Assembly: GCA_965277805.1 (NCBI GenBank)
Contig: OZ255842.1
Span: 4,352,001 to 4,416,000, forward strand
Direction: 5' to 3'
Length of the DNA: 64,000 nt
From: Candidatus Lustribacter sp.
GTDB taxonomy: Bacteria; Vulcanimicrobiota; Vulcanimicrobiia; Vulcanimicrobiales; Vulcanimicrobiaceae
Part shown: positions 41,102 through 63,337 of the stretch, one piece after another
Layout: the number at the start of each line of letters is the position of its first letter
Position numbering within the stretch: the first letter of the stretch is position 1
Position numbers and translations under genes: made by a program
Notes under the pieces: model-generated
Seen by the model: the letters and a program-made list of their open reading frames with translations, nothing else
Database searches by the model: none
What the model was told of the DNA's origin: nothing

Positions 41102-41131
41102 CCGGGATGACCTCCTCTGTGATGCGTTATG

Positions 41132-42340: not shown

Positions 42341-42392
42341 GAAGCCCTGATCCTGTTCGCGGCGTCCCGACGCCTGGCGAACACGGGCAACT

Positions 42393-42407
42393 ATACTGCA
42401 TCGGCAT
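42393..42407. promoter_or_regulatory. Possible LysR (BenM/CatM-like) recognition site
   Basis: ATAC-N7-GCAT (one mismatch to ATAC-N7-GTAT) between the divergent Rieske and LysR genes. Confidence 0.4.
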
Positions 42408-42495
42408 GGAAGGCGCTCCCCAATTGAATGGGAACCCGCGCCGTCCGCAAGTACGGCGGAGCCTTGGGCGACAGGGAGAATAAACCGCCTTAATC

Positions 42496-44599: not shown

Positions 44600-44732
44600 C
44601 TTGCAAAGTGCCCCGCATGGGGAGCGAATCCTAGCGCTCGTAATATCAGTTTTGACCGTCTGCTATACGGAAGTAGTATCAAACGCGAGCTGGAAGGCGA
44701 TGGTGCTTTAAGGAAGCTGCATTCGTCCAACA

Positions 44733-46949: not shown

Positions 46950-48424
46950 TCATATACCCCGCGGATGCTCCAGGCACTCGATTCGTGCGCGATGCGCACG
47001 AGGGAACCGTCGTCGAGCAGCACGTCGTACTCATCGCGCACCAACGGCTCGCCGGCGCCGACCGCACCGGCCCACCAGCCTTCTTCAACGCGCCACGGCC
47101 CGGCCGCATCGAGCACCGTTTGCGCGGGCGTGCCGACGAATCGCGGTGCGCCGCCGATCACGCGCACGGCGACCGCTTGCGGTGCGATCGGATGGAATTG
47201 CAGCGTTGCGGTCTGCGGTAACGGTGCCGGCGCGGTAACAGTCCAGCTTTTCGTTACGAGCGGTTCGAGCGTGAACGGGTCGTGCGCGAAGCGCCGCTCG
47301 ACGCGCGGACCGTTCACGATGCGCGTGCGCAACGCGCCGCCGTCGCCGAATGCGGCCTCGAGTCGCGCGAGCACGACGCCGAGCGCATCCGGATCCGGAT
47401 CGCCGGCCGCAAAGAGCGCGAGCGGCACGCCGCCGTCTTCGAGTCCCTCTGCAACGAGCCGCAAACCGGTGACGGGCGCGTCTAGCACGACGCCTTCGAG
47501 ACGTGCGCGCAGCAGGTTGAACAGCGTTGCCGGCACCGCGGTGGGCTGCGCGACGCGCGTGGTGAGTTCGCGGATGTCGCCGTTTTCGCACTCGAGCGCG
47601 AGGACGAGCCGTCCCGCGCGCTTCCCCGCCGCGCCCAAATCGTCGACGACGCGGTTGACCAGCGAGCGCAGCGCGAACAGCACGGCTTCTTCGGAGCTGG
47701 CTTCACCCTCGCCGTAACTGCTGCGGTCGATCCGCAAGGCGCGCGGGCGCGGGCGCAGCCGGCGGCGATCGATGCCGCACGCCCACTCATGCCAGCGTCC
47801 CGACGCCGGGCCGAAGCGGCGCACGAACGGTCCGTGCGGCAGCGCCGCCAGATCGCCCAGCGTGGCGACCCCAAGCAAGCGCAGCCGGTCGCAGACGTCG
47901 TCACCGCAATCGAGCAGCTCCAGCGGCAGAGGGCTGAGGAAGGCCGCCGGATCGCCGTCACAGATGGCCCCATCGCCGAGCATCGCCGCCGCCCGCGCGA
48001 CGAACGGGTTCGGCCCAAGACCGACCCGTAGCGGCAGATCAAACCCGGCCAGCGCGTTGCGGACCGCGCCGATCCAGCCGTAGGCGCTGCCCTCGATGCC
48101 GTGCATCTCAAGGAAGGCCCGGCCCCAGCCGCCGTCCTCAACCAGCGGCGAGGCGGCGTCGAGCGCCTCGAGCACGTCGGCCCAGACCGCCGCGTCCCGC
48201 TCGCGATCGTCGACCACGGTGCGGGCTTCGTTGGCCACGGCCTGCGCCTGGACGAGCGTCATCCCCGGCCGTACCCCAAGCGCCGCCGCCGGCAGCGAGC
48301 AGTCCACGACCCGGCCGCGTTCGAGCTTGTCGGCCACGATCACGGGTGCATCGAGGTCGACGGCCTGGGTCAGCCGGGCGACGGCCAGCCGGAACGCCGG
48401 GATCCAGAGACAGATAATCGGCAT
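46946..48424 (-). CDS. imuB: ImuB, catalytically inactive Y-family polymerase homolog
   Basis: GVRPGMTLVQAQA, LRLLGVATLGDLA, clamp-like PLALF and ImuB-C-type GPWRVEEGWW...RDEYDV...WSIRGVYD. The DxD and SxDE catalytic acids are absent. Confidence 0.87.
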   Translation of the reverse strand: MPIICLWIPAFRLAVARLTQAVDLDAPVIVADKLERGRVVDCSLPAAALGVRPGMTLVQAQAVANEARTVVDDRERDAAVWADVLEALDAASPLVEDGGWGRAFLEMHGIEGSAYGWIGAVRNALAGFDLPLRVGLGPNPFVARAAAMLGDGAICDGDPAAFLSPLPLELLDCGDDVCDRLRLLGVATLGDLAALPHGPFVRRFGPASGRWHEWACGIDRRRLRPRPRALRIDRSSYGEGEASSEEAVLFALRSLVNRVVDDLGAAGKRAGRLVLALECENGDIRELTTRVAQPTAVPATLFNLLRARLEGVVLDAPVTGLRLVAEGLEDGGVPLALFAAGDPDPDALGVVLARLEAAFGDGGALRTRIVNGPRVERRFAHDPFTLEPLVTKSWTVTAPAPLPQTATLQFHPIAPQAVAVRVIGGAPRFVGTPAQTVLDAAGPWRVEEGWWAGAVGAGEPLVRDEYDVLLDDGSLVRIAHESSAWSIRGVYD

Positions 48425-48433
48425 TGGGCGCCG

Positions 48434-48462
48434 ATTGTATCGAACATACGTTCGATACGCAA
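48434..48462 (-). promoter_or_regulatory. LexA (SOS) box inside the sigma70 promoter of imuB
   Basis: GTATCGAAC-ATAC-GTTCGATAC at 48437-48458. On the minus strand: TTGCGT (-35), 17 bp, TACAAT (-10), 9 nt, ATG. Confidence 0.9.
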
Positions 48463-48518
48463 GAGCCGGGATTCGCCGGTCCTTGCCTCGTCTGCAAAGA
48501 CTGGACGGCGCTGGTAAG

Positions 48519-48545
48519 CGCTAACCTATGAGTTAGCGATTTTTT
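48519..48545 (+). terminator. Possible intrinsic terminator or operator hairpin upstream of the GGDEF gene
   Basis: CGCTAAC-N6-GTTAGCG followed by ATTTTTT. Confidence 0.3.
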
Positions 48546-48599
48546 GGCGAACAGGGTCAGGATCTGTATGAGATTGCCTATCAATGAGGTCGTTTCCGA

Positions 48600-49466
48600 T
48601 TGTTCTTCCGCGTGAAGAAGAAGGCAAGCGCATCGGTAACTGTCGCTGAACAACTCGTGCTCGGCATAATCGGTCCTCCGGTAGCGACCCAACAAACACT
48701 ATCGAACGACGTTCTCATTCGGATTCAACGCGATTGGGCTTGCGGTTGCCGAACGCAGTTACTCTCGCCGGGGCTCTCCTCGTGGGAGCTGTGCCGGCGG
48801 CACGAAATCATGTATTTGGGTGCGGACGAAGGGAAGCCGTCGATCGGGCTGCGGGAGTGGCTCGAGGCGCTCGTTCATAATGTCCACGCTCCCGTTTGGA
48901 GTGCGCCGCTCGTCGGACTCGGCGTGGCGCTCGCAATAAAAGTCGCTTACGATTCGAAGGCGTTGGCGAAGCGCGCGAAAGAAGCCGAAAACACCGCCTT
49001 GATCGATCCGTTGACCGGTCTGTACAATCGCCGTGGTTGGAATCGCCGTGTCGACGAGGAGCAAAAGCGTCTAAAGCGCGATGCAAAAGCGCCCGTTGCC
49101 GTTGCTGTGTATATGCTCGACGTCGATGGCCTGAAAATTACCAACGATGAACGTGGGCATGCCGCCGGTGATGCGATTTTACGTCAGGTATCGAAAGTGA
49201 TTTCGTCGGTTACTCGGGAGCATGACATCACTGCCCGGCTCGGCGGCGATGAATTTGCGATCATGACGATTCAATCGCAACCTGCCGAAGCCGATCTCAT
49301 TCGCGCGCGCCTCGAGCGTGGCTTTCAATCGGCAAGCCTTGCGGTCTCGATCGGCTGCGCATTCGCCGAGTCGCTCGAGACGATCAGTGACGCGATGGAT
49401 CGCGCCGACAGCTTGATGTACGAAGCGAAGAAAAGTCGCGTCGGACGCGCCGCAAAAAGCCTCTGA
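48600..49466 (+). CDS. Diguanylate cyclase with N-terminal Cys/His motif and hydrophobic segment; start uncertain
   Basis: DPLTGLYNRRG, DVDGLKITND, GHAAGD, I-site REHD five residues before GGDEF, ADSLMY. Confidence 0.88.
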   Translation: MFFRVKKKASASVTVAEQLVLGIIGPPVATQQTLSNDVLIRIQRDWACGCRTQLLSPGLSSWELCRRHEIMYLGADEGKPSIGLREWLEALVHNVHAPVWSAPLVGLGVALAIKVAYDSKALAKRAKEAENTALIDPLTGLYNRRGWNRRVDEEQKRLKRDAKAPVAVAVYMLDVDGLKITNDERGHAAGDAILRQVSKVISSVTREHDITARLGGDEFAIMTIQSQPAEADLIRARLERGFQSASLAVSIGCAFAESLETISDAMDRADSLMYEAKKSRVGRAAKSL

Positions 49467-49552
49467 AACCGTGATTGTGTGATCTGCATCCGGGTACGAT
49501 GAGAATCTGAAAATGCGGATAACGGCCGTTACAGAGTTCCAGTTCTCGTAGC

Positions 49553-49831
49553 ATGCCGAAACATCCATCGCTAGGCGACCTTCGAGCGGTACTCGGCTTG
49601 TACGAGCTTTCGAGAGCACCCATGGAAGCGGTTAGTTCCGGCCAGGCAACGATCCTCATCGCCAAATGGGCGTGCGGCTGCTCGTCACGCGGAACCGACA
49701 TGCGCGCGATGGAACACCTGAACTGCAGCCGGCACGAGCGGATTGGGCCACGCCCTCCCTTCCCCGGCGACCGTAGAACGCGTTTACGGCGCCAGCGCGG
49801 TCAGATCGCCGAGCGTGGCGACGCCGAGTAA
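49553..49831 (+). CDS. Small hypothetical protein with WACGC-x14-CxRH motif
   Basis: Shares the exact motif and spacing with the N-terminal region of the upstream GGDEF ORF, which supports its being coding. Confidence 0.55.
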   Translation: MPKHPSLGDLRAVLGLYELSRAPMEAVSSGQATILIAKWACGCSSRGTDMRAMEHLNCSRHERIGPRPPFPGDRRTRLRRQRGQIAERGDAE

Positions 49832-49840
49832 TGCCAGTCG

Positions 49841-50461
49841 CTAACGCGGCTCAGCAGCGTACGAGCTGCCCGTCACCGGATCGATATAGACATCGCGTGT
49901 TGCAGACGTCTTGCCACGATGCTCCTCGAACTGCACGTGCCAAGTCTGTTCGTCGGCCCGATTGCTTTCGAACCCGCGAAGCAGCTCGACGTTCTCCACC
50001 TTCGTCAGCATGACGCCCGCACCAAGCTCGGCTTGCGCGCGCCGCACGGCCGCCATCGGCGTCGCAATCAATGGGTGAGTAGCGACGGGAGCACTCCCGA
50101 GCGCCAGGATCAAGGCGAGCGCCACGCCGAGAATGCCGATGCCGATTGCTAGTTCCTGGATCGCCACCGCGCCCTTGAGCCGCCCATCGTCAATCTTCGG
50201 CGTCGACGCATTGAGCAGCAGCAAGGCGCGCCCTAAAGCGAAGATGCCCGCGGCGGCGGCGACGAACAGAAAAATCCAAGACACGATCAGCATCGACTTC
50301 TGCAACGGCGTAAACGTGAAACCGGTCGGGGTCACGAGACCGATGCTAAAGACGAGCGCTCCGCTCGCAAGAGACAGAAGTAACTTACTGAGATCGACGG
50401 CCGCCGCGAACGCTGCCGGCACCGGCGGATCCTGGGCCTCCTTAACCACCGTCGCCGTCAT
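49841..50461 (-). CDS. Membrane protein (3 TM) with a PepSY-like C-terminal domain
   Basis: Three hydrophobic helices; C-terminal AVRRAQ...WHVQF...DVYIDPVTG. Confidence 0.6.
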   Translation of the reverse strand: MTATVVKEAQDPPVPAAFAAAVDLSKLLLSLASGALVFSIGLVTPTGFTFTPLQKSMLIVSWIFLFVAAAAGIFALGRALLLLNASTPKIDDGRLKGAVAIQELAIGIGILGVALALILALGSAPVATHPLIATPMAAVRRAQAELGAGVMLTKVENVELLRGFESNRADEQTWHVQFEEHRGKTSATRDVYIDPVTGSSYAAEPR

Positions 50462-50832
50462 CAGTCGAACGGCCAGAAACCGAGCGAGATGCCGAAGAAC
50501 GAATGGCCCGTGATTTGCGCCGGGCCCATCGCCCGTAATCTCTCCGCAACATCGTCGGGCGTGTCGAGGAAGCGCGTCCCCGGTCCGTATCCCGCGTGTC
50601 TCGTCGCTTCGTCGTAGCGAGCTCGCGCCTCGGCCGACGATGCGGCGTCGAACGCCTTCATCGCAGCCTCGCGCAACGAGCCGGCTTGATCCGGAGCAAT
50701 ATTCGCGAGGGCAGCGTCCGAAATCTGCGCGACCAGAAACTTGCGCGCTTCCGGGGTTACGGCTTGGGCGCGGCGTTCCTGAAACTCCGCCGCCGCGTCA
50801 TCGACAATGCGGGCGGCCTCTTCCCGTGTCAC
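50461..50832 (-). CDS. Hypothetical helical protein ending in FWPFD
   Basis: GTG start 8 nt after a GATAGT -10-like hexamer; the stop overlaps the next ATG by 1 bp (TGATG). Confidence 0.6.
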   Translation of the reverse strand: MTREEAARIVDDAAAEFQERRAQAVTPEARKFLVAQISDAALANIAPDQAGSLREAAMKAFDAASSAEARARYDEATRHAGYGPGTRFLDTPDDVAERLRAMGPAQITGHSFFGISLGFWPFD

Positions 50833-50980
50833 GCGGCCGCACTATCCGTTCCGTCGCCGGCCACCCTGTCGGCCAATCGAGGCCTCGCCGATTGCCGACA
50901 GCCATTGGACGAAGCGCGGAGCGAGCGCGTGCGCGTCGACCATAGGACTTTAGTCGGGGCTCCTTGTAAGCATCATTGCT

Positions 50981-52174
50981 ATGGCTCCTGGGTATTTTCG
51001 CAAATTAATTGCGTTGGTCATTACCGTTGCGTCACTTGCCGCGGTGGGTTCACCGGTGGGTGCGGCCGACCCGTATGAGATCAACGTGATCCTGCCGCTC
51101 ACCGGCCGGCTCGCGTTCGTCGCTGCGACCGATCAGCAAGCCCTCAAAGCCCTGGAAACATACACCAACAAGACCGGCGGCATCCGCGGAAGGCCGCTTT
51201 CGTTCGTTTTCGCCGACGATCAGTCCGATGCAAAAGTCGCGTTGCAACTCGCGCAGGGCCTGATCGCGAAGAATGTGCCGCTCATCATGGGACCTTCGAG
51301 TCCGGATGCTTGCGCTGCGATCGCCCCGATCATCGAACAGAACGGTCCGTTCTTGTATTGCTTAGCGAACGCGGGGCATCCCACGCCCGGAAGCTACAAC
51401 TTCCTCACCCTCTTCCCGTACGAACCGCAGTTCGTCGTGACGATGCGCTATTTCCGCGAGCGCGGCTTCAAGAAGCTCGCTTATGTGGTTGCCTCCGATG
51501 CCGGCGGTCACGACGCGGAGAAGGCATTGCTCTACGCGACCGGATTGCCGGAAAACAAGTCAATCCAAATCGTCGACCACGAGTACTTTACGCCCGGCGA
51601 TCTCAGCGCTGCGGCGCAAATGGAGCGGATCAGCGCTGCGAAGCCCGACGTGCTGGTCGTTTGGGCCACGGGCACGGCGGCTGGCACGCTCTTCCGCGGC
51701 GCCCAAGACGTGGGCATGGACCTGCCCACGGCCACCTCCCCCGGCAACCTCAATGCTGCCTTCTTCAAACAGTACGCATCGAAATTGCCGAGCAATTTGC
51801 TGTTCGCATCGGTGCCGTATTACGGCGGCGACGCGCAGATGAACCCGGCCACGCGCGCAGCGGTCGCGACGCTGACGAACGCGCTTGCGCCGCTGGGTGC
51901 GAAGCCCGACACGATCGAGATCTCAGCTTGGGATCCGGGCTTGATCATGGTCGATGCGCTGCGCAAGATCGGGCCGGGTGCCACGGCCGCACAACTCAAA
52001 GCGTACGTCAGCAACTTGCAAGGCTTTACCGGCGTCAACGGGCCATACGATTTCAAAGCGGAACCGCAACGCGGACTTGGCTCGAAGAACATCGTCGTGG
52101 TGAAATACGATCCAAAAGACGGTTCATTTACGGCGGTGAGCAAAGCCGGCGGCGATCCGCTCCCCGGCAAATAG
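50981..52174 (+). CDS. LivJ-like ABC substrate-binding protein
   Basis: Signal peptide; LPLTG, NKTGGIRGRP, DDQSD, FTGVNGPYDF. Confidence 0.88.
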   Translation: MAPGYFRKLIALVITVASLAAVGSPVGAADPYEINVILPLTGRLAFVAATDQQALKALETYTNKTGGIRGRPLSFVFADDQSDAKVALQLAQGLIAKNVPLIMGPSSPDACAAIAPIIEQNGPFLYCLANAGHPTPGSYNFLTLFPYEPQFVVTMRYFRERGFKKLAYVVASDAGGHDAEKALLYATGLPENKSIQIVDHEYFTPGDLSAAAQMERISAAKPDVLVVWATGTAAGTLFRGAQDVGMDLPTATSPGNLNAAFFKQYASKLPSNLLFASVPYYGGDAQMNPATRAAVATLTNALAPLGAKPDTIEISAWDPGLIMVDALRKIGPGATAAQLKAYVSNLQGFTGVNGPYDFKAEPQRGLGSKNIVVVKYDPKDGSFTAVSKAGGDPLPGK

Positions 52175-52180
52175 CCGATC

Positions 52181-52708
52181 ATGGTTGACGACGTCGAGTC
52201 GCTCATCACCGATGAGATGCGCGCGTGCATCGGCTACACGACGCCGCCGCTCGCGATTCCCGAAGAGATCAGCGCATCCGATGTGCGGCACTTCGTCTCC
52301 GTCATCGGCGAGACGAACCCGATCTACCGCGACGCGGCCTACGCACGGCGCATGGGCTACAAGGGCGTCGTCGTCCCGCCGATCTTCGTTGTCATTCTCT
52401 TCCGCCGCATTCAGGTACCGGTCGGACAACGGCCGGGTCTCGATTGGGGTCCGCTCCAGTTGCCGCCATCGTTCAAGAACACACGCAACGCCGGTCAAGT
52501 CTATGAGTGGCTGCGACCGGTGTACGTCGGCGACACGCTTACGATCACGACGAAGCTCGTCGATCTGCTGGCGCGCCGCACGCGCGACGGCCGGCCGATG
52601 ATCCTCATCGTTTCGGAATTCGAAATCCGCAATCAGCACGGCGAACTGATCCTCCGTCAGATGAATCACGACGCAAAACTCGAGCTGACGTCGTTCAAAG
52701 CGAGCTGA
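52181..52708 (+). CDS. MaoC/FAS1-like hot-dog dehydratase subunit
   Basis: IGETNPIYRD...VVPP, RPVYVGDTL, NQHGEL. Confidence 0.85.
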   Translation: MVDDVESLITDEMRACIGYTTPPLAIPEEISASDVRHFVSVIGETNPIYRDAAYARRMGYKGVVVPPIFVVILFRRIQVPVGQRPGLDWGPLQLPPSFKNTRNAGQVYEWLRPVYVGDTLTITTKLVDLLARRTRDGRPMILIVSEFEIRNQHGELILRQMNHDAKLELTSFKAS

Positions 52709-52710
52709 CA

Positions 52711-53838
52711 TTGGGACGGGTGCTCGATCTCTCGCGTCAAGCCGGCGTCTATGCGACCCGGCTCTTGGCCGAGCAAGGTCACGACGTGATTCGGCTCGAG
52801 CCGCCCGGCGGCGATGCGGTGCGGCGTCAAGGACCGTTCCTCGGCGGCGCGCCCGACATCGAAGACGGCGCCTACCATCAGTTCTTCAACGCCGGCAAAC
52901 GCAGCGTTGCGCTCGACGTGACGACGGCCGCCGGCCGCGAAGCATTCGCGCGGCTCGCGCAAATGGCCGACACGATCGTCGCGAGTTTGCCGCTGCCGAT
53001 TCCCGAAGCCGAACTGCGCGCGCGCAATCCGGATCTCGTGCTGGTGCTGATCACCGAAGACGACCGACCCGAGCTGTGCGCGTACGCGCGGTCGGGCCTG
53101 CTCTCGATCACCGGCCATCCCGATCGCGCGCCGGTGCTGATGGGCGGTCACATTATGTACGCCGCCACCGGTCTCTGGGTGATGATCGCGGCCGCATCGG
53201 CGCTGCTCGTGCATCGCATGACCGGCGAAGGCCAAACCGTGACGGTCGACATCCAGCAGTGCTTCGAATCGTTTCTCGATCACGGCATCGAAAACTACAT
53301 GGCGCGCGGACGGCGCGTCGAGCGCAGCGGCGCGCGCGGCTCGGTGACGGCGCTCGCCGGGGCGCTGCCCAGCAGCGACGGCTTCTGGATGCTGAGCTTG
53401 ATGGACTCGCGCGAACAGTGGCGGATGCTGCTCGAGTGGATGGACGATCCGGCGCTGACCAACGACGAGACGCTCGGCAAGTACGAAGCGCGGCTCGCGC
53501 GGCGCGACGAACTGCTCGACCGCATCGGCAACTGGGCGAGCGGATCCACCAAGCTCGACGTTGTGAGCGAGGCGCAGAGCCGCCACATTCCGGCGGCGCC
53601 GATTGCGACCTCGCTCGATCTGGCCGAAGACGCGCAGTTGATCGACCGCCGCTTTTTGGTCGAGATCGATCACCCCGCGCACGGTCATATGCTCTTCCCG
53701 CGCGGCGCGCTCGCCACGATCTGGGATCGCGAAATGCCGGTCGCGCCACGGCTGGGTTCGGCCAACGCCGAGATCTTGCGCGAAGTGGGTTACACGGAAG
53801 AAGAATGCGTGCTGCTGTTCGAACGGAGCGTGATATGA
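52711..53838 (+). CDS. Family III (CaiB/BaiF) CoA-transferase, BbsE-like subunit
   Basis: RVLDLS, VIRLEPPGGD, NAGKRSVALD, APRLG; TTG start. Confidence 0.87.
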   Translation: MGRVLDLSRQAGVYATRLLAEQGHDVIRLEPPGGDAVRRQGPFLGGAPDIEDGAYHQFFNAGKRSVALDVTTAAGREAFARLAQMADTIVASLPLPIPEAELRARNPDLVLVLITEDDRPELCAYARSGLLSITGHPDRAPVLMGGHIMYAATGLWVMIAAASALLVHRMTGEGQTVTVDIQQCFESFLDHGIENYMARGRRVERSGARGSVTALAGALPSSDGFWMLSLMDSREQWRMLLEWMDDPALTNDETLGKYEARLARRDELLDRIGNWASGSTKLDVVSEAQSRHIPAAPIATSLDLAEDAQLIDRRFLVEIDHPAHGHMLFPRGALATIWDREMPVAPRLGSANAEILREVGYTEEECVLLFERSVI

Positions 53839-54332
53839 GGCATCCCGATCCGGTTGAGGTCGAACAGCGGTATTTCGAGGATGTCCACGTCGGCACCGAG
53901 ATCCCGCCGCGCGACTTCGGGCCCCACACGCTGCTCAGCGCGGTGTTCTGGGCGGCCGTGCAAGAAAACGCCGGACTGCTGCACCTCGATCGCGATTACG
54001 TGCGCGAATTCCGCGGCGCACCCTCGATCGTGGTCAGCGGTCAGCAGCGCCAGAGTTTGCTCACCCGCGCGCTGATGGACTGGGCCGGCCCGCGCGGCTT
54101 CCTGCGCAAGATGGATTGCCGGCACCGCACCTCGACCTACGAAGGCGACTCGCACATTTTCTCGGCCAAGGTGATCGAGAAATCGAGCGATCCCGAATCG
54201 CCGTGGATCGTATTGGAGTTCGACGGCCGCAATCAAAAAGACGAGCAGATCTTGCGCGGCACGTGCACGATTCTGTTGCCGCGCCTCGACTGGCCGATCG
54301 AGCGCCACGTGTGGGACGCCGAGACGCCGTGA
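53835..54332 (+). CDS. MaoC-like hydratase subunit
   Basis: YFEDVHVG, ENAGLLHLDRDY, DWAGP; ATGA overlap with the upstream gene. Confidence 0.82.
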   Translation: MRHPDPVEVEQRYFEDVHVGTEIPPRDFGPHTLLSAVFWAAVQENAGLLHLDRDYVREFRGAPSIVVSGQQRQSLLTRALMDWAGPRGFLRKMDCRHRTSTYEGDSHIFSAKVIEKSSDPESPWIVLEFDGRNQKDEQILRGTCTILLPRLDWPIERHVWDAETP

Positions 54333-55489
54333 GCAGCCTGAGCGGCAAGTACGCAATCGTGGGCGTCGGTGAATCCGACGTCGGTCAGCGCACGGGCCGC
54401 ACCGGCATGGAACTGCACCTCGAAGCGGCGACGCGCGCCATCGCCGATGCGCGCATTGAGAAGTCGGCGATCGATAGCGTGATCGCGCGGCCCGCGCACA
54501 GCGCGAACATGGACAACTACTCCGCCGTGCTGGCCTACCAGCTCGGCCTGCAGCCCGCGTACATCACCGACGTCGGCCTCAGCGGCGCATCGTCGGTGTC
54601 GATGATCCTCGCCGCGGTGGCGGCGCTCGAAGCTGGGTTCTGCACGATGGCGCTGTGCGTGAACGGCGACTCGTCGAGTTCGCGCGGTTCGGCCAAAGAG
54701 ATGCACGCCGCGCACCGCAATTGGATCGACGATCTCGAGCGGCCGTACGGCTTGGTCGGTGCGCCGATCCAGTACGCGCTGCCCGCGATGCGGCACATGT
54801 ACGAATTCGGTACGACGAGCGAACAGTTCGGCGCGATCGCGGTCGCCTGCCGCAAGCACGGCGCCCTCACGCCCAACGCGGTGTGGCGCGAGCCGATTAC
54901 GCTGGCCGAGCATCAAGCCTCGCGCATGATCGTCGATCCGTTCCATCGCCTCGATTGCTGCGGCACGACCGACGGCGCGGGCGCCGTGATCGTGACGTCG
55001 GCCGAACGCGCGCGCGACCTGGCGCAAAAGGCCGTGTACGTACTCGGCCTCGGCCAGCACGCCTCGCACGCCGACGTGCAGTACGCCGCCTCGATGACGA
55101 CGAGCGCCGCCAAAGGCGCCGCGGACCAAGCCTACGCGATGGCGGGCCTGCGGCCGATCGACATCGACGTGGCCGAACTCTACGATTGCTTCACCTCGGT
55201 CGTGCTCGTCACGCTCGAAGATTACGGCTTTTGCAAGAAGGGCGAGGGCGGACCGTTCGTCGAGGGCGGCCGGATCGAACTCGGCGGCGAATTGCCGGTG
55301 AACACGAGCGGGGGACTGCTCTCGCAAGTCAACGCCAGCGGATTCTTTCACATCACCGAAGCGGCCACGCAGATGCGCGGCAGCGCCGGTGCGCGTCAGG
55401 TCGAGGACGCGGAAACCGCCATCGTCAGCGGACAGTGCGCGGTGACCGGCGTCAACGCATGTCTCATTCTCGGAAACCAACAGCCTTAA
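54329..55489 (+). CDS. SCP-x/Ltp2-type thiolase-fold protein
   Basis: AIVGVGES, DCCGTTDGAGAVIV, ELYDCFT, LEDYGFC, PVNTSGGLLS; GTGA overlap. Confidence 0.88.
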   Translation: MSSLSGKYAIVGVGESDVGQRTGRTGMELHLEAATRAIADARIEKSAIDSVIARPAHSANMDNYSAVLAYQLGLQPAYITDVGLSGASSVSMILAAVAALEAGFCTMALCVNGDSSSSRGSAKEMHAAHRNWIDDLERPYGLVGAPIQYALPAMRHMYEFGTTSEQFGAIAVACRKHGALTPNAVWREPITLAEHQASRMIVDPFHRLDCCGTTDGAGAVIVTSAERARDLAQKAVYVLGLGQHASHADVQYAASMTTSAAKGAADQAYAMAGLRPIDIDVAELYDCFTSVVLVTLEDYGFCKKGEGGPFVEGGRIELGGELPVNTSGGLLSQVNASGFFHITEAATQMRGSAGARQVEDAETAIVSGQCAVTGVNACLILGNQQP

Positions 55490-55504
55490 CATGGGAGCCT
55501 TCGC

Positions 55505-56608
55505 ATGATCGCCTGTCTTTCTCCGAACGGACAAAACACGACGCGCGGCAACGATGCCGTGACGAAGTTGCTGGTGGCAACGGTCGAGGGCATCAGCGTA
55601 CTCGAGCGCGAGCGGCCCGGTGCCGAGTGGCAAAACCGCGGCCACAAGCTCGAGGGCAAGCACTGCAGCTCGATCATGATCGAGCCCAAGCGCGGCGGCA
55701 TCTTTGCCGGTTTTCACGAGAACGGCGGCCTCTACTTCAGCAGCGACGGCGGCGAGACGTGGGAGCGCCGTATGAACGGTCTCACGATCGATCACGTCTT
55801 CTCGGTCGCGTACGCGCATCACGGCGATAAGGTCGTGTTGTATGCGGGCACCGAACCCGCGTCGATCTTCCGCAGCGACGACTACGGCTTGACGTGGGTC
55901 GAGCAGACCGGCGTGAAAGAGGCGCCCGATCGCGACAAGTGGCTCTTCCCGGGCAAACCGCACATCCCGCACGTGAAATCGATCACGGTGAGCCTCGCCG
56001 ATCCGAACATGGTGTGGGCGCTGGTCGAACAGGGCGCGCTCATGCGCACGACCGACGGCGGCGCGACCTGGATCGAACAAAAAGATTACTCCAAGCCCGA
56101 AGATCACAACTACCGCGACGTGCACCAGCTCACCATGCACCCGGTGAACACGAACGAGTTGTGGCTCACCACCGGCATGGGCGCCTACCACAGCCTCAAC
56201 AGCGGTGAGAAGTGGGAGCAGATCACCGACACGTCGTTCCGCGTCGGCTATCCCGACCATACGTTCGTCTCGCCGCTCGATCCCGACATGATGTTCGTTT
56301 CGGGCGCGATGATGTATCCGGGGCACTGGAAGAAAGTGCACCGCGCCGATCCCACGGTGATGAAGTCGCGAGATCGCGGACGCACGTGGGCTGATTCGAG
56401 CGAAGGTCTCGCCGAAGACCGCCGCGCGAACATCGAAGCGATGAGCATGGCGATCTATCCCGGCGGCTTCTCGCTCTTCGTCGGCAACACCGACGGCGAG
56501 GTCTACGAAACCGGCGATGCGGCCGAACACTGGACGCAGATCGCGCGTGCGCTCGGCCCGGTGTCGAAGATCTATCACTACAAGAACTTGCTGCCCGTTC
56601 CGGCGTGA
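55505..56608 (+). CDS. BNR/Asp-box beta-propeller protein (no signal peptide)
   Basis: Repeated S/T-x-D-x-G-x-T-W: SSDGGETW, SDDYGLTW, TTDGGATW, SLNSGEKW, SRDRGRTW. Confidence 0.85.
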   Translation: MIACLSPNGQNTTRGNDAVTKLLVATVEGISVLERERPGAEWQNRGHKLEGKHCSSIMIEPKRGGIFAGFHENGGLYFSSDGGETWERRMNGLTIDHVFSVAYAHHGDKVVLYAGTEPASIFRSDDYGLTWVEQTGVKEAPDRDKWLFPGKPHIPHVKSITVSLADPNMVWALVEQGALMRTTDGGATWIEQKDYSKPEDHNYRDVHQLTMHPVNTNELWLTTGMGAYHSLNSGEKWEQITDTSFRVGYPDHTFVSPLDPDMMFVSGAMMYPGHWKKVHRADPTVMKSRDRGRTWADSSEGLAEDRRANIEAMSMAIYPGGFSLFVGNTDGEVYETGDAAEHWTQIARALGPVSKIYHYKNLLPVPA

Positions 56609-57813
56609 TCGCACACGAACGGGCGCAAACGGCGTCCGGTGTCAGCCCGATTGCCGGGCTGAAGGTCTTCGACTTCACCCACGTCTTCGCCGGCCCGTTC
56701 TGCACGCGCACGCTGGCCGATCTCGGCGCCGACGTCGTGCACGTGGAAAGCCCGTCGCGCGATCCGGGCGACCGCCATCGCGCGACCTACGCGCACCGCA
56801 ACAAACGCTCGATCGCGCTCGACCTCAAGAGCGAAGCGGGACACGCTGTTGCGATGCAACTGGCGATGGGCGCCGACGTGATCGTCGAAAACTTCAGCGC
56901 CGGCGTAATGCGACGCTTGAAGCTCGACTACGAAACGCTCAGCAAAGACAACCCGCGCCTGATCTACATCAGCCTCTCGGGTTACGGCCATACCGGTCCG
57001 CGCAAATCGTGGACCAGCATGAACATGAACCTGCAGGCGTACACAGGTCTCATGCTCACGACCGGCGCTGAGGGCGATCCGCCGACCGCGATCTCGAATT
57101 CGTGGAACGACTACATCGGCGGCCTGCACGGTATCATCGCCGTGCTCGGCGCACTGACCGAGCGCGAAGACACCGGCCGCGGCCGCAACATCGACTTGAG
57201 CCAATTCGAGTGCAGCGTTGCGACGGTCGGCGCGCTCTTGATGGCGTCGGCCGTTTCGGGCAAACCGCCGAAGCGCTGGGGCAACCGTTCGAGCAGCGCC
57301 GCGCCGCAAGGCGCCTATCCGTGTGACGGCACCGACGAATGGTGCGTGATCGTCGCCGAAACCGACGAGCAGTGGCGTGCGCTGGCAAACGCGATCGGCC
57401 GCGCCGACCTCGCCGCCGACGAACGCTTCGCAACGGTGGTCGGACGGATGCGTCATCACGACGAGCTCGATGCGGCGATCGGCGCGTGGACGCGCGGCCG
57501 CCGCAACACCGAGGTGGAGCAGACGCTGCAGGCCGCCGGCGTTCCGGCCGAACGGATGCGGCGCGTGGACGACGTCGTCGAATCGCCGGATTCGGGCGGC
57601 GCATACCGGCCCGTGCCCGGCGAGCGGAAGAAGCCGCTCGTTGCCCCGTCGGTGCCGTTCACGTTCAGCAAGAGCACCGTGGCAACGTTCACCGCGCCGT
57701 GCACGTTAGGAGAACATACCGAAGAGGTACTGCGTGACTGGCTAGGCTTAGACGCCGCCGCAATCGCGTCGTTGCAGAGCCGGAACGCGTTCGGAGCTGA
57801 AAGGACAAACTGA
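56605..57813 (+). CDS. Family III (CaiB/BaiF) CoA-transferase, BbsF-like subunit
   Basis: DFTHVFAGP, LADLGADV, RNKRSIALDLK, ENFSAG, and catalytic-position Asp in WNDYIGG. Confidence 0.92.
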   Translation: MIAHERAQTASGVSPIAGLKVFDFTHVFAGPFCTRTLADLGADVVHVESPSRDPGDRHRATYAHRNKRSIALDLKSEAGHAVAMQLAMGADVIVENFSAGVMRRLKLDYETLSKDNPRLIYISLSGYGHTGPRKSWTSMNMNLQAYTGLMLTTGAEGDPPTAISNSWNDYIGGLHGIIAVLGALTEREDTGRGRNIDLSQFECSVATVGALLMASAVSGKPPKRWGNRSSSAAPQGAYPCDGTDEWCVIVAETDEQWRALANAIGRADLAADERFATVVGRMRHHDELDAAIGAWTRGRRNTEVEQTLQAAGVPAERMRRVDDVVESPDSGGAYRPVPGERKKPLVAPSVPFTFSKSTVATFTAPCTLGEHTEEVLRDWLGLDAAAIASLQSRNAFGAERTN

Positions 57814-58757
57814 TGGCCTCGTATTCGCGCGCCGCAGCATTGACCGGTATCGCCGCACTCGCCGCCGCGCCGGCGATCGTTCGCGGCGCCGACTTGGCTC
57901 CGATCCGCATCGGCGCCGCGCCGACCGACGCGACCGCCCAGCATCTCTACGCGCAAGACCTCGGCATGTTCGCGGCTGCCGGGCTCAGCGCGGAAATCCA
58001 GCCGATGCGAACGTCGGCATCGCTGATCGCGGCGATCGTCGGCGGCTCGCTCGATGTCATGACGAGCACGGTCGTTTCCATCGCGCTCGCGCACAACAAG
58101 GGCATCGATATGCGCGTGATCGCGGAAGGTAACGTCTACGACGGCCCGCCGCCGCAAGCGGCGATCGTGGTCGCGCCGAACTCGACGATCAAGAACGGCG
58201 CCGATCTCAACGGCAAGACCGTTGCGGTGAACGGTCTCGGCGATCTCACCCAAGTGGCGATCGCGGCGTGGATCGACGCTAACGGCGGCGAGTCGAAGTC
58301 GGTGAAGCTGATCGAGGTGCCGTTCTCCGGTGTCGGCGCGGCGCTCGCGCAAGGACGCATCGATGCCGCGCTGCTGGTCGAACCGTTCACGGCGGCGGCC
58401 CGCGCGGCGGGCCAGATCAAGATTCTCGGTGACCCGCAAGCAGCGATCGGACGCGGCTATATGGTCACCGGCTGGTATGCGAAGGCCGACTGGCTGAACG
58501 CGAATCGCGATACGGCGCGGCGGTTCGTCGACGTGATGCTGCAGACGGCGAAGTGGGGCAACGCGCATCATCCCGAGTCGGCAGCGATCCTGGCGAAGTA
58601 CGTGGGCATGACGGCCGATGCGATCCAGACGTCGCCGCGCGCCGTTTACGGCGAGAAGCCGATTCAGCCGGCGATGATTCAGCCCGTGCTGGACTTCTCG
58701 ACCAAGTACATCGGCCTCGAAAAGACGTCGGCCGCGGCGTTGATCTGGCGCGCTTAA
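57813..58757 (+). CDS. SsuA/NMT1-type ABC substrate-binding protein
   Basis: YSRAAAL signal; DLNGKTVAVNGLG; GRIDAALLVEPF. Confidence 0.88.
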   Translation: MASYSRAAALTGIAALAAAPAIVRGADLAPIRIGAAPTDATAQHLYAQDLGMFAAAGLSAEIQPMRTSASLIAAIVGGSLDVMTSTVVSIALAHNKGIDMRVIAEGNVYDGPPPQAAIVVAPNSTIKNGADLNGKTVAVNGLGDLTQVAIAAWIDANGGESKSVKLIEVPFSGVGAALAQGRIDAALLVEPFTAAARAAGQIKILGDPQAAIGRGYMVTGWYAKADWLNANRDTARRFVDVMLQTAKWGNAHHPESAAILAKYVGMTADAIQTSPRAVYGEKPIQPAMIQPVLDFSTKYIGLEKTSAAALIWRA

Positions 58758-59207: not shown

Positions 59208-59720
59208 ATGGCTGAATCCGAACGCACGCGCTCGCGAGAGCGCGAACGCCCCACCCAAAGCGCTTACGAGGTGGCAATCACCTACGATAAGGAGCGCACC
59301 GAGCGGCAAAGCGTCGGCCGCGTCGTTTTGCGGTTGGAAGATTGCCCGCAAGAGCAAACGCGTCAGGGCCTCTTGCGCCCGTACCTCGATCCCTTCCTCA
59401 TTCCCGACACGCCGTTGCAGCACTGGGCCGTGTTCACGCACGAGATCCATACGAAATCTGGTAAGCACCGTCATCAAGGCGGTCTCGTGATCTACGTGAT
59501 CGACGGCAAGGGCTGGTCCGTGGTCAACGGCGAGAAAGTCGATTGGGAGAAGGGTGACCTGGTGTTGCTGCCGTTGGAAAAAGGCGGCGTCGAGCACCAG
59601 CACTTTAATGCCGACCCGGCGCATCCGGCGCTCTGGATCGCGTTCATTCACTTTCCGCTGCGCGACTACGTCGCCTCCGAAATGACGCAACTCGAAACCG
59701 CGGTGGACTATCGTGAGTGA
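59208..59720 (+). CDS. Cupin protein with intact metal-binding His residues
   Basis: SGKHRHQGG, YVIDGKG, WEKGDLV, EHQHFN. Confidence 0.85.
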   Translation: MAESERTRSRERERPTQSAYEVAITYDKERTERQSVGRVVLRLEDCPQEQTRQGLLRPYLDPFLIPDTPLQHWAVFTHEIHTKSGKHRHQGGLVIYVIDGKGWSVVNGEKVDWEKGDLVLLPLEKGGVEHQHFNADPAHPALWIAFIHFPLRDYVASEMTQLETAVDYRE

Positions 59721-60231
59721 TCGTACCGAACGGCTCGCCGAACAAAACTTCTGGGATCAGATTTTCGAGCTGCGCGACGAACAGCGCGCGCAGCGCAAGA
59801 ACGGCATCATGGTCATCAAGGAAGCGCAGCTGCCGCTCGAGGTCAACAAACAAGGCTTGATGCGCTGGTACATGCATCCGGGCATCAAAGACACGATCCT
59901 TTCGTGCTATCTCGTGTACTCGCAAGAGATTCCGCCTGGCAGCCGCTCGGGGCGGCTCTTGTTCGGCGGCGATCAGGTGATCTACGTCGTGGCCGGTCAA
60001 GGCTATACCGTGCTCGACGGCGTGAAGCATCCGTGGAAGGCCGGCGACGCGTTGAACTTGCCGCTGCGCAAGCCCGGCATCACCGTGCAGCACTTCAACA
60101 CCGATCCCGAGATCACGGCGAAGTTGATCGCCGTCGAGCCGAACTTTCTGCAATGCGCGAGCGTCGATCGAGGCACCGGTTTCGAACAGCTTGAAAACGC
60201 CCCCGAATACGACCGCGCAAAACGAGGCTGA
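59713..60231 (+). CDS. Cupin paralog lacking the HxH metal motif
   Basis: EIPPGSRSGRLLFGG, YVVAGQG, WKAGDAL, TVQHFN. Confidence 0.82.
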   Translation: MSDRTERLAEQNFWDQIFELRDEQRAQRKNGIMVIKEAQLPLEVNKQGLMRWYMHPGIKDTILSCYLVYSQEIPPGSRSGRLLFGGDQVIYVVAGQGYTVLDGVKHPWKAGDALNLPLRKPGITVQHFNTDPEITAKLIAVEPNFLQCASVDRGTGFEQLENAPEYDRAKRG

Positions 60232-60236
60232 TCCCG

Positions 60237-62381
60237 TTGACTCACGCTCATAACCACGCCCACGCTCCGAACGCCGTCCCGCACGTGCACGCAACCGTCG
60301 ACAATCTCGGGGCCACGGCCGGCGGGAGTGCGCGGCAGCGTATCGTGCTCGACGCGGCTCAGATGCAACAGCTCGGGCTTGCGGCCGGCGATACGGTGCG
60401 CGTTGCGACCGAGCGCGGCCGCAGTACGGTTGCCCGGCTCGAGGCTCCGGCCGCCGACGGCAACACCGATATCGTGCGCATGGACCGCTTCGTGCGCCAA
60501 GCGTTGAAGGCGCGTCTCAACGAGTCGGTCGAGATCGAGCCGATCACGCTGGGGCCGGCCAAGCGTCTGGAGTTACTGCCGGCCGCCGACGTCACGACCG
60601 CGCACGATCTGATTCCGCACTTGACCGCGCTGCTCAGTGCCGACAGCACGGTCGTCAGCCGCGATACCGTTCTGTATCTGCCGTTTCCCGGCACGAATTC
60701 CGGCACGACGTATCAAGTCATCACGGTCGACGACGGTCCGGGCTACGTCACGGCCGACACGCAGATCGTCATGCACTATGCCGACGCGCACGTGCCGACC
60801 GGCGCGATGGACGTCACGTTCGAAGACGTCGGCGGCCTCGGCTCGCAGATCCGCGCGGTGCGCGAATTGGTGCAGCTGCCGCTGAAGTTTCCACACGTCT
60901 ACCAGCAGCTCGGCATCGTGGCGCCGCGGGGCATCATCCTCTACGGCCCGCCGGGCGCCGGTAAGACGCGCATGGCACGCGCGATCGCAAACGAGGTCGA
61001 GGCGCGCTTCTACTACATCAACGGTCCCGATATCATCGGTACCTATGCCGGCGAGACCGAAGGCAACTTGCGACGGATCTTCGGCGAGGCCGGACACCAC
61101 TCGCCCTCGATCATCTTCATCGACGAACTCGATGCGATCGCGCCCAAGCGCGGCGAAACCGGCGCGCATGCCGACATTCGCGTCGTCACCCAATTGCTCT
61201 CGTTGATGGACGGTCTCGGGCAAGTGGATGCGGTGGTCGTCGTTGCCACGACGAACCGGCTCGACAGTGTCGACCCGGCGTTCCGGCGTCCGGGCCGCTT
61301 CGATCGCGAGATTTTCGTCGGTCCGCCCGACATCGCCGGCCGTCGCGAAGTGCTCGATATCCACACGCGTGAGATGCCGCTCGCGCCCGATGCAATAGCT
61401 GCGCTCGACGATGTGGCGTATCGCACGCACGGTTTCGTCGGTGCCGACTTGATGGAGCTCTGTCGCGAGGCGGGCCTCTCCGCGCTGCGCCGCAACACGT
61501 CGATGCTGGCCGATCACCGCTCGGCGTTTCGTTTGCAGTCGGAGCAGATCACCGTGTCGCGCGGAGACTTTGAGCACGCGCTCGCGCATGTACGGCCGTC
61601 GGCCTTGCGCGAAACGCTGATCTCGCGACCCGACGTCACGTGGGCCGATGTCGGCGGCATGGACGCGCTGCGGGAAGAGCTGCGCGAGCTCGTCGAGATG
61701 CCGCTGCACAAGCCGGATGTGCTCGCCCAAATGGGACTGTCGGCGCACTCGGGGGTGCTGCTCTACGGCGCGCCCGGCACCGGCAAGACGCTGCTCGCGC
61801 AGGCGGTCGCCAACGAATGCGGCGTGAACTTCATCGCCGTCAACGGTCCGGAGCTGTTCACCAAGTGGCTCGGCGAGTCGGAAGAGGCCGTGCGGCACAT
61901 CTTCCGTATCGCGCGTCAAGTTGCGCCGGCGGTGATCTTCTTCGATCAGCTGGATTCGATCACGCCGGTGCGCGGCGACCATAGCGGTTCGATGACGACC
62001 GAACGCGTCGTCAACCAGCTGCTCGCGGAACTCGACGGCATCGAACCGCTCTCGGGCATCGTCGTGCTGGCCGCGACCAATCGCATCGATCTCGTCGATC
62101 CGGCGATCCTGCGTCCGGGACGGTTCGGCACGCACGTCCACGTGCCGCTGCCCGACGCGGCCGGCCGCCGCGCAATTCTCGAACTCTTCCTCACCGGCAA
62201 CGTCGATGCATCGATCGACGAGCTGGTGCCGCTCACCGAAGGGTTTTCCGGTGCGCAACTGCGCGAACTTTGCGCGCGCGCCAAACGGCTCGCGCTCCGG
62301 CGCACCGGTTACACCGGCGCCGTCGCCACCACCACAGCGGATCTGCTCAAAGCTATCGAAACCGTGAAGGAGCCGACATGA
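60237..62381 (+). CDS. Cdc48/p97-family double-ring AAA+ ATPase
   Basis: N-domain, then VTFEDVGG. D1: [25 protein letters not shown]2: [29 protein letters not shown]. Confidence 0.93.
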
Positions 62382-63337
62382 CCTCACGCATCTCACGCCG
62401 CGGAAGCCTCGCCGGCATTGGGGCCGCGCTCGCCGCGAGCACGTTGCCGCGCGCCGCGCGTGCCGACGCCGTTCCGCTGCGCGTCGCGCTCGTGCCGATC
62501 TGGGACGTTGCGCCGTACTATGCCGCCGAGCAGCAGGGCTACTTCGCGGCGGAAAATTTGGTGTGCACGCCGTCCTTCGTGCGCGGCGGAGCGGTCGGTA
62601 TTCCGGCCGTCGTCGGCGGGACGTACGACATGGTCTACGCTAACGGCACGAGCATCGTTCAGGCGATCTCGAAAGGTATCGACCTGCGGATCATCATCGA
62701 GGGCGCGCCGATCGGCTCGAAGCCGCCGGATCCCGGCGCGCTGCTCAAGCGCAAAGGCGACCCGTTCAAGACGGGCAAGGACCTCGAAGGCAAGGTCGTC
62801 GGCGTGAACGCGCTGCGCGACGTGCAGTGGATGCTCGTCACGGCGTGGGTCAAAGTCACCGGCGGCGACCCCGACAAAGTGCAGATCGTCGAGATTCCGC
62901 TGCCCTCGATGGTCGACGCCCTCAAGCAAAAACGCGTCGACGCGGCGCTGGCGCTCGATCCGTTCATGACGATGGGCTTAGCCGATCCCGCAATCGAATT
63001 GCTCGACTGGGCCTTGAGCCGCGCGTACCCCAACGGCCCCGTCGGCTTCTTCGCCGTCACGCCGGAGTTGACGGCGAAACGCGGCAACGATCTGCGCGCG
63101 TTCGTGCGGGCGTACAAGCGCGGGGCGGCGTGGTGCAACGCCAACGCCGGCAAGGAACCGTTCATCAAACTCGTGGCCGGTTACAGCAGCATCGCGCCCG
63201 ATCTCGTCGCGCAGATGAAACCGATTCCGGCCCATGCCGAAATCGTGCCGAGCGACTTGCCGCGCCTGACCGCGCTCATGACGCAAACCGGTCTGCTCAA
63301 CACTCCCGTCGATCTGCGCAGCAAGATCTTCACCTAA
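62378..63337 (+). CDS. SsuA/NMT1-type ABC substrate-binding protein
   Basis: AAGGAG RBS; ISRRGSL Tat signal; KTGKDLEGKVVGVN; paralog of 15479..16444. Confidence 0.88.
   Translation: MTSRISRRGSLAGIGAALAASTLPRAARADAVPLRVALVPIWDVAPYYAAEQQGYFAAENLVCTPSFVRGGAVGIPAVVGGTYDMVYANGTSIVQAISKGIDLRIIIEGAPIGSKPPDPGALLKRKGDPFKTGKDLEGKVVGVNALRDVQWMLVTAWVKVTGGDPDKVQIVEIPLPSMVDALKQKRVDAALALDPFMTMGLADPAIELLDWALSRAYPNGPVGFFAVTPELTAKRGNDLRAFVRAYKRGAAWCNANAGKEPFIKLVAGYSSIAPDLVAQMKPIPAHAEIVPSDLPRLTALMTQTGLLNTPVDLRSKIFT

Follow-up and report, generated by a model that had tools for sequence, protein, structure and literature searches.

Results

Organization of the locus

Within a 64,000-nucleotide stretch of Candidatus Lustribacter sp. 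DNA (contig OZ255842.1, positions 4,352,001 to 4,416,000 of the forward strand), hereafter referred to as the window, a gene for a Cdc48/VAT-type double-ring AAA+ ATPase stands directly behind two small cupin genes, designated cupA and cupB (Table 1). The ATPase has the domain order N-D1-D2, with a CDC48_N barrel domain (PF02359, 44.5 bits against a cut-off of 35.1) and two AAA domains, each with a lid (PF00004 and PF17862, two copies of each). Its top NCBIfam model is TIGR01243 (CDC48), at 679.2 bits and under the curated cut-off of 802.65, and the closest solved structures, matched over residues 32-690, are VAT (5g4f, 3.2e-180) and p97 (about 1e-169). A catalytic Walker-B glutamate is present in only one of the two rings: D1 reads IIFIDELD (D296 and E297; Asp-Glu, hereafter DE), and D2 reads VIFFDQLD (D570 and Q571; Asp-Gln, hereafter DQ). 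Pore loops are found in D1 (GTYAG, Y270) as well as in D2 (TKWLG, W544), as are the sensor-1 asparagines (N340 and N615) and an RPGRF motif in each ring. In the AlphaFold2 model, with a mean predicted local distance difference test (pLDDT) score of 79.6, residues 1-12 score below 50 and the first beta-strand comprises residues 17-23.

These features had been described in an earlier note on this DNA (the original prediction), which was made from the letters alone and proposed a Cdc48/p97 protein with DE in D1 and DQ in D2, intact Walker A motifs, pore loops and RPGRF, a His-rich N-terminus and a C-terminal KEPT in place of an HbYX motif, located 5 bp behind a cupin pair and overlapping the gene of a solute-binding protein. 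All of this was recovered by direct reading of the nucleotides and of the translation, including the 5-base spacer between the cupB stop codon (60229-60231) and the TTG start of the ATPase (60237) and the overlap of the binding-protein ATG at 62378 with the ATPase TGA as ATGA. The two cupin genes overlap as well, the GTG start of cupB lying across the cupA stop (GTGAGTGA). The C-termini of the ATPase family are variable, and those of nine archaeal loci described below read GYR. Because the protein has no HbYX motif at its C-terminus and the only PF00227 match in the genome of the window is a 179-amino-acid frame, nothing points to a proteasome link, in agreement with the earlier view that the ATPase does not serve general proteolysis.

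Table 1. Features of the ATPase-cupin locus in the window, and genes that accompany the four further cupin pairs (loci L081-L084) of the same genome.
Feature	Coordinates	Strand	Basis or remarks
cupA, 170-amino-acid monocupin with a gentisate-dioxygenase-type metal motif	59208..59720	+	Pfam Cupin_2, 4e-9
cupB, 172-amino-acid degenerate monocupin without HxH	59713..60231	+	Pfam Cupin_2, 1.1e-4, below cut-off
GAGG ribosome-binding site, 9 nt upstream of the ATPase TTG start	60224..60227	+	direct reading
Cdc48/VAT-type double-ring AAA+ ATPase, 714 amino acids	60237..62381	+	translation, Pfam, NCBIfam, PDB-profile match, AlphaFold2 model
His-rich N-terminal extension, residues 2-18, 7 His	60240..60290	+	translation; predicted disordered
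N domain, residues 19-190	60291..60806	+	PF02359 at residues 32-104; VAT/p97 match from residue 32-37; beta-rich in the model
D1 AAA module: K243, Y270 pore loop, D296-E297, N340, R351, R354	60819..61616	+	full catalytic set
D2 AAA module: K517, W544 pore loop, D570-Q571, N615, R626, R629, G631, H633	61662..62336	+	alignment
CAG codon, Gln571 at the Walker-B catalytic Glu position	61947..61949	+	direct reading
NMT1/THI5-type solute-binding protein, Tat-like SRR signal	62378..63337	+	Pfam; outside the conserved module
Neighbours of L081: Amidohydro_2, acyl-CoA-dehydrogenase-like protein, glyoxalase-type dioxygenase, NMT1 binding protein
Neighbours of L082: two CoA-transferase subunits, AMP-ligase, NHL protein, MmyB-type regulator
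Neighbour of L083: Peripla_BP_6 binding protein
Neighbours of L084: FAA (fumarylacetoacetate) hydrolase directly beside cupB, molybdenum hydroxylase, class II aldolase, UbiD

The D2 glutamine is a conserved trait of a clade

All 120 listed homologs (98-65% identity) carry DE in D1 and DQ in D2. A wider set of 80 loci was taken from contigs of species-representative genomes, 71 of them bacterial (Eremiobacterota, Alpha-, Beta- and Deltaproteobacteria, Acidobacteriota, Bacillota and Chloroflexota) and nine archaeal (ANME/Methanosarcinales). At the D2 Walker-B position, the bacterial loci have glutamine in 67 cases, histidine in three and glutamate in none, the remaining locus being unreadable since it is cut by a contig end, and the residue is glutamate in all nine archaeal loci. 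The codon was also examined in contigs of a different study (X4), which cover positions 61828-62200 with 10 differences from the window; the four listed differences nearest to the motif (61916, 61934, 61952 and 61970) all affect the third base of a codon, and the CAG stands as in the window. Two other contigs, X1 and X2, match the window without a difference and may be its own source. Since the glutamine is kept across the homologs, the loci and the contig of another study, the objection that it reflects an assembly error or a private mutation fails, and Gln571 is a conserved trait of the clade.

Some variation was seen at or near this trait. Three cupin-linked loci of Terriglobia (Acidobacteriota; L046, L047 and L048) have histidine at the D2 position (IVFFDHLD). 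In two metagenome-assembled genomes (MAGs) of close relatives (97-99% identity), the ATPase gene is split into two separate frames (L051, 10001-12143, and G006:C4:560179-562321), which are probably assembly indel errors and not real pseudogenes. A metagenome scan with a deeper DQ protein alignment (A4), which relies on generic AAA motif patterns, gave 80 loci; among the 32 of them listed, one is DQ and has both cupins (L085), one is DT (L108, a 3-kb contig with a Cdc48-like open reading frame that reads LLFFDTID), and the rest are DE or unreadable. No cupin match was found at the listed loci other than L085, in a scan that missed the deep DQ lineages. The only taxon name among the cluster members of ten deep DQ proteins is Chloroflexota.

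Phylogeny and selection on the D2 ring

A FastTree phylogeny was computed from 118 rows, namely the window's ATPase, 29 of the 80 loci (those with complete two-ring open reading frames) and 88 of 150 library representatives (600-860 amino acids, with two readable Walker B motifs). All 44 non-Glu rows (39 Gln, 3 His, 1 Asn and 1 Asp) lie on one side of a single branch with an SH-like support of 94, the next inner branch has a support of 96, and the cupin-linked loci form a nested clade of 27 rows (support 98). An IQ-TREE analysis under a mixture model, in which all 32 non-Glu rows were kept together with a random draw of 26 from the 74 Glu rows (58 rows), returned the same single split with an SH-aLRT (Shimodaira-Hasegawa approximate likelihood ratio test) support of 99. 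The column of the trait itself stayed in the tree alignment, as 1 of 703 columns. A single loss of the D2 glutamate would be the simplest reading of these data, the tree being unrooted. The His-rich tail of the ATPase is confined to a subclade of Alphaproteobacteria and Eremiobacterota, as judged from the family comparison and the tree; the outer cupin-linked lineages are without it, and their proteins begin directly at the first strand of the N domain.

Residue conservation was compared between 26 cupin-linked sequences and 74 DE relatives. In the cupin-linked D2 ring, the Walker A lysine, the pore-loop tryptophan and both arginines are invariant (100%) and the sensor asparagine reaches 92%, and the Walker-B position is glutamine in 92% and histidine in the remainder, against 100% glutamate in the DE relatives. 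The D1 ring is complete in the same 26 sequences, with 100% conservation of the Walker A lysine, the Asp-Glu pair, the sensor asparagine and both arginines, and 73% of the pore-loop tyrosine. For the large subdomains, pairwise identity averages 0.78 in D1 and 0.67 in D2, and the resulting D2/D1 ratio of 0.86 is close to the 0.88 of the DE relatives. Decay of D2 under relaxed selection was considered and rejected on the basis of this ratio and of the fully conserved key residues, and the ring is under purifying selection.

A further change of the D2 ring lies at RPGRFGxH (window 62109-62135, residues 625-633) and accompanies the loss of the Walker-B glutamate. The position after RPGRF is glycine in 96% of the 26 cupin-linked sequences, compared with aspartate in 85% of the DE relatives, and the histidine two positions further on (G631 to H633 in the window) is found in 92% of the former and is variable in the latter. 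This change might be compensatory for the lost glutamate.

The conserved partner of the ATPase is the cupin pair

Presence of a cupin at a locus was scored at a minimum of 40% identity and 60% coverage. By this measure, 57 of the 71 bacterial loci have both cupins, eight have one and six have neither, and none of the nine archaeal loci has a cupin. Three of the six cupin-less loci lie on short or cut contigs (L043, L044 and L050), and the genomes of L020, L028 and L075, in which the ATPase locus has no cupin, carry cupin pairs elsewhere. Among the 57 complete loci, cupB is immediately upstream of the ATPase gene in 48; the order is cupB-ATPase-cupA in 26, cupA-cupB-ATPase, as in the window, in 15, and a divergent cupA followed by cupB-ATPase in seven, and the other nine show further arrangements within 5.4 kb. 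Clustering of the neighbouring genes revealed no third gene that recurs with these three, and the recurring clusters located inside the ATPase gene were rejected as partners, being antisense frames. cupA, cupB and the ATPase gene make up a conserved three-gene module. The link to a cupin/CoA cluster that had been suggested earlier holds for its cupin part, while the CoA-transferase, thiolase-like and BNR genes found upstream recur only in close relatives among the Eremiobacterota (L001-L003 and L051); what is conserved is the partnership with the cupin pair and not with the CoA-ester genes.

Co-occurrence was followed at the level of whole genomes in samples whose members are mutually related, so that the counts given here are not independent trials. 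Among 41 relatives of the window's genome, the same six carry cupA (2-8 matches each, E<=1e-40) and one ATPase, and the other 35 carry neither. Likewise, 11 of 201 Xanthobacteraceae genomes have cupA and the same 11 have the ATPase at 53% identity or more, 182 have neither, and eight others (G384, G253, G341, G177, G259, G296, G199 and G195) have only a Cdc48-like gene of 43-49% identity and no cupA; this gene represents a further bacterial Cdc48 lineage. No genome of either sample has cupA without the ATPase of the module or the reverse. Motor and client family would thus occur together in 6 of 41 and 11 of 201 genomes, a pattern comparable to that of AAA+ activases that serve one client family. 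The 401 Chloroflexota genomes surveyed contain 21 Cdc48-like loci, of which seven are DQ and 14 DE, and a cupin match within the 1.5-kb flanks was present at five of the seven DQ loci and at none of the 14 DE loci; three of the DE genomes gave no cupA-type match at E<=1e-20. An order-level sample around G001 had cupA in one of 151 genomes, namely the centre genome itself, which is too rare for a test of co-occurrence. The expectation that DQ would be conserved in a clade that co-occurs with the cupin pair was thereby borne out by the homologs, by the loci and, exactly, by the two genome samples.

The number of copies differs between the partners. The window's genome, a single 5.53-Mb contig, has one ATPase gene and five cupA/cupB pairs, G001 has one ATPase and two pairs on other contigs, and G002 has one ATPase and about four pairs. 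The 3.5-Mb Chloroflexota MAG G391, the genome of L056, has 11 cupA-type copies (E 1e-68 to 1e-79) and one DQ ATPase, so that the cupin family is strikingly expanded there. The four further pairs of the window's genome lie on G000:C1 near 248343, 1041708, 1137981 and 3745113 (L081-L084), each in a different catabolic cluster (Table 1) and each with an N-terminal ERTRxRER tail. Because a single ATPase copy is found with 2-11 cupin pairs across differing catabolic clusters, the ATPase would serve a protein family and not a pathway, and the earlier description of a remodeller dedicated to one pathway was abandoned on these grounds.

The cupins resemble a split gentisate-type dioxygenase

The best PDB match of the cupA profile is gentisate 1,2-dioxygenase (GDO; 3bu7, 2.4e-19), and cupA aligns to both cupin domains of this structure, with HRH on HRH and HxH on HxH. 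The four metal histidines of this motif are present as H87, H89, H130 and H132, and these residues are invariant, together with E129 and N134, in an alignment of 21 sequences across phyla (A1, mean column identity 65%). The cupB profile (A2, 61%) matches 3bu7 at 5.2e-12 and has QEIPPGSRSGR in place of HxH. With respect to the family as a whole, cupA reaches only 24.6 bits against TIGR02272 (cut-off 442.1), and the single-chain bicupin of about 340-390 amino acids is replaced by two chains of 170 and 172 amino acids. By these alignments, cupA and cupB look like a GDO-type bicupin whose two halves, one metal-binding and the other metal-less and structural, have become separate chains, and from the motifs and the gene context we infer that they are ring-cleaving dioxygenases of aromatic catabolism. 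cupA also matches PF02311, the AraC ligand-binding cupin family (1.8e-5).

cupA begins with a tail, MAExERTRxRER, that members from different phyla share and that all five paralogs of the window's genome retain. In the AlphaFold2 model of cupA (pLDDT 83.7), residues 1-9 score below 50 and are predicted to be disordered, so that the candidate client bears a conserved and putatively flexible terminal extension, possibly a recognition tag for the ATPase. A complex prediction of cupA, cupB and the N domain of the ATPase (residues 1-195) gave a score of 0.01, which is uninformative on binding either way. Foldseek assigned the cupA model to the generic cupin fold, and GDO is one of its top matches; the ESM Atlas gave unnamed or generic cupin clusters only, and among the 746 proteins that match cupA at E<=1e-10 the 120 listed bear generic names. 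NCBIfam and PADLOC have no model specific to these cupins, and no match to cupA was found by tblastn in 72,556 plasmid records. A known defence system was considered and rejected, as PADLOC gave for the module generic AAA similarity only (IetA and TRIP13) and matched neither cupin.

Catabolic surroundings

Upstream of the module, the window holds a catabolic island (40148-58757) with genes for an NMT1 binding protein, a Rieske oxygenase, a Peripla_BP_6 protein, a molybdenum hydroxylase, a MaoC-like hydratase, two family-III CoA-transferases, a thiolase-like protein and a BNR/Ycf48-like protein, the last encoded by a gene closely flanked by the thiolase-like gene on one side and by that of the second CoA-transferase on the other. 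Downstream, homologs of the solute-binding protein are found close to the ATPase only in Eremiobacterota and Stellaceae loci. The Tat-type (twin-arginine translocation) signal of this protein is encoded within 62378-62440, and a longer open reading frame, from TTG 62270, is probably an over-call. Frequent neighbours in other phyla are UbiD (30 loci), a GDO-like bicupin of 366 amino acids (29), TctC (29), a LigXa-like Rieske oxygenase (24) and Amidohydro_2. The surroundings of the cupins are consistently those of aromatic or heteroaromatic catabolism, and the pathway is not the same for every pair. Most carriers are uncultured bacteria of soil and bog, with numerous genes for aromatic degradation.

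Discussion

In Cdc48 and p97, D2 is the motor, and the E578Q change of p97 is the standard means to inactivate it. The ATPase described here shares with archaeal VAT/Cdc48 and eukaryotic p97/VCP (5g4f and 7lmy) the N-D1-D2 order, the pore loops, sensor-1 and the arginine fingers, but differs from them in the D2 glutamine, the missing HbYX motif and a TIGR01243 score below the cut-off, and, unlike for p97, no ubiquitin-type adaptors are evident and the partner is a cupin pair. What seems to be new is a Cdc48-family AAA+ protein that would act as a client-dedicated helper, with a fixed Walker-B glutamine in D2 and an obligate cupin partner. Literature searches, which covered papers apart from their supplements, found no publication on a Cdc48-cupin module.

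The distribution of work between the two rings may instead be similar to that in NSF, a factor that disassembles complexes, in which D1 is the working ring and D2 binds ATP without hydrolysing it and holds the hexamer together. The same division can be read from the residues of the present ATPase, as D2 fits ATP binding without hydrolysis (Lys517 kept, the glutamate lost) and D1 is complete, and we infer that D1 is the working motor ring. The protein is nevertheless nearer to VAT and p97 than to NSF, its D2 keeps the pore-loop tryptophan and both arginine fingers, and its clients would be enzymes, whereas those of NSF are SNARE complexes. Another bacterial double ring of the Cdc48 family with one degenerate ring is the actinobacterial Cpa, in which D1 is degenerate and D2 has the sensor asparagine and the arginine finger, and which binds the 20S proteasome and is encoded in an operon with psd and another gene (PMC6017811). 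Compared with that description, the ring pattern is opposite here, with D2 lacking the glutamate, and the neighbours are cupins. A functional parallel may be the red-type Rubisco activase CbbX, for which threading of a conserved terminal extension of the client has been described (PMC5437159). Both would be AAA+ motors for one enzyme family whose client has a conserved and possibly threadable terminal extension; CbbX has a single ring, whereas the present ATPase is a Cdc48 double ring with an N domain, and its client would be a cupin with the extension at the N-terminus.

On the side of the clients, the nearest known enzymes are the gentisate and salicylate 1,2-dioxygenases (3bu7 and 2phd), with cupA aligning to both 3bu7 domains and cupB more weakly. 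The enzyme proposed here would differ from them by its two chains of about 170 amino acids, by a cupB without HxH, by the additional N-tail of cupA and by the obligate pairing with an ATPase, while GDO-type dioxygenases are not known to need ATP. FAA hydrolase belongs to gentisate pathways, and an FAA-hydrolase gene stands likewise beside one of the pairs of the window's genome (L084).

Taken together, we propose with about even confidence that the ATPase, driven by D1, remodels or activates a family of split, ring-cleaving cupin dioxygenases, with the cupins as its presumed clients. The hexamer would be held together by an ATP-bound D2 ring that hydrolyses slowly or not at all, in the fashion of NSF, while D1 would exert a pull on the cupin complex. 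The point at which it takes hold would probably be the conserved and disordered N-tail of cupA, which offers itself as an obvious handle by analogy with the Rubisco extension threaded by the red-type activase. Such a pull could open or reset the enzyme and so permit loading or exchange of the metal, release of an inactivated (oxidised or inhibited) state, or assembly; here we speculate that metal loading or reactivation is the step in question. One ATPase would act in trans on every cupin pair of the genome. In the subclade of Alphaproteobacteria and Eremiobacterota, the His-rich tail at the mouth of D1 might hold metal, and its composition is compatible with metal handling. A more daring version, which we put forward only tentatively and consider doubtful, holds that this cupin family matures or stays active only through tag-led partial unfolding by the Cdc48 motor, with D1 pulling and an ATP-locked D2 serving as clamp or scaffold, and with one subclade delivering the metal from its own His tail.

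Several observations weigh against the activase proposal. A contact between ATPase and cupins is presumed from their gene linkage and co-occurrence, and the enzymatic activity of the cupins is likewise an assignment by motif and gene context. In human p97, E578Q abolishes unfolding and E305Q in D1 has a mild effect (bioRxiv 10.1101/129528); because the division proposed here is the reverse of these ring roles, a motor driven by D1 only is not guaranteed to work. The invariant D2 tryptophan and the family-specific glycine and histidine past RPGRF could mean that D2 acts on the substrate or hydrolyses ATP in some other way. The His-rich tail is missing from the outer cupin-linked lineages and is therefore not essential to a core function. 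Lastly, two Chloroflexota genomes with a DQ ATPase stand apart: in G561 nothing of the cupA type matches at E<=1e-20, and the cupin matches of G534 are all distant.

Among the other explanations, the one we take most seriously, while regarding it as unlikely, is an NSF-like role in disassembly, subunit exchange or turnover of cupA-cupB hetero-oligomers, whereby mis-paired subunits are sorted or damaged enzyme is removed, possibly to a protease. The layout of an active D1 and an inactive D2 is that of the complex-disassembling NSF, the 2-11 closely similar pairs of a genome could mis-pair, and aromatic pore loops are present in both rings, as full threading requires. No protease gene recurs in the neighbourhoods, however, the ATPase lacks HbYX in a genome with the single short PF00227 match, and a pure turnover factor would leave unexplained why the cupins never occur without the ATPase. 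It seems quite improbable that the cupins are instead adaptors or ligand sensors that bind a pathway metabolite and steer the common ATPase to regulators or cluster enzymes. The match of cupA to the AraC ligand-binding cupins and the occurrence of one ATPase with many pairs in differing catabolic clusters would suit such a role, whereas the complete and invariant GDO-type histidine motif would be needless for a sensor, neither a DNA-binding domain nor a common third partner recurs nearby, and the tag-like tail is borne by cupA itself.

We see very little likelihood that the ATPase and the cupins form, in fixed stoichiometry, an ATP-dependent holoenzyme in which ATP turnover is coupled to each catalytic cycle of the cupins. 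While the obligate co-occurrence in genomes and the 26 of 57 loci in which the ATPase gene separates cupB from cupA would agree with this view, a single ATPase gene faces up to 11 pairs, many of them unlinked, its conserved pore loops imply work on a polypeptide and not small-molecule chemistry, and known dioxygenases of the GDO type need no ATP. Finally, hardly any credence can be given to a general-proteostasis homolog of Cdc48 or VAT that stands beside the cupins by chance, or to a glutamine that arose from sequencing error or decay, notwithstanding the high overall similarity to VAT and p97: the residue is non-Glu in all readable family members, the CAG is kept in the contig of another study, co-occurrence is exact in two genome samples, and D2 is under purifying selection.

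The activase proposal, together with the observations on which it builds, bears on the biology of Cdc48 proteins and on that of aromatic catabolism. An E578Q-like change that became fixed at the base of a large bacterial clade, with the D2 ring otherwise intact, offers a natural experiment on the contribution of each ring. The pairing of an unfoldase of the Cdc48 type with a single family of metalloenzymes from catabolism would extend the idea of a dedicated AAA+ activase, as known for Rubisco, to aromatic ring cleavage, and members of this cupin dioxygenase family are likely to fail in heterologous expression unless the ATPase is supplied. If the more daring version is true, the ATPase would be the first Cdc48 activase or metallochaperone in bacteria that is specific to an enzyme, and it would use a natural Walker-B trap ring constructively.

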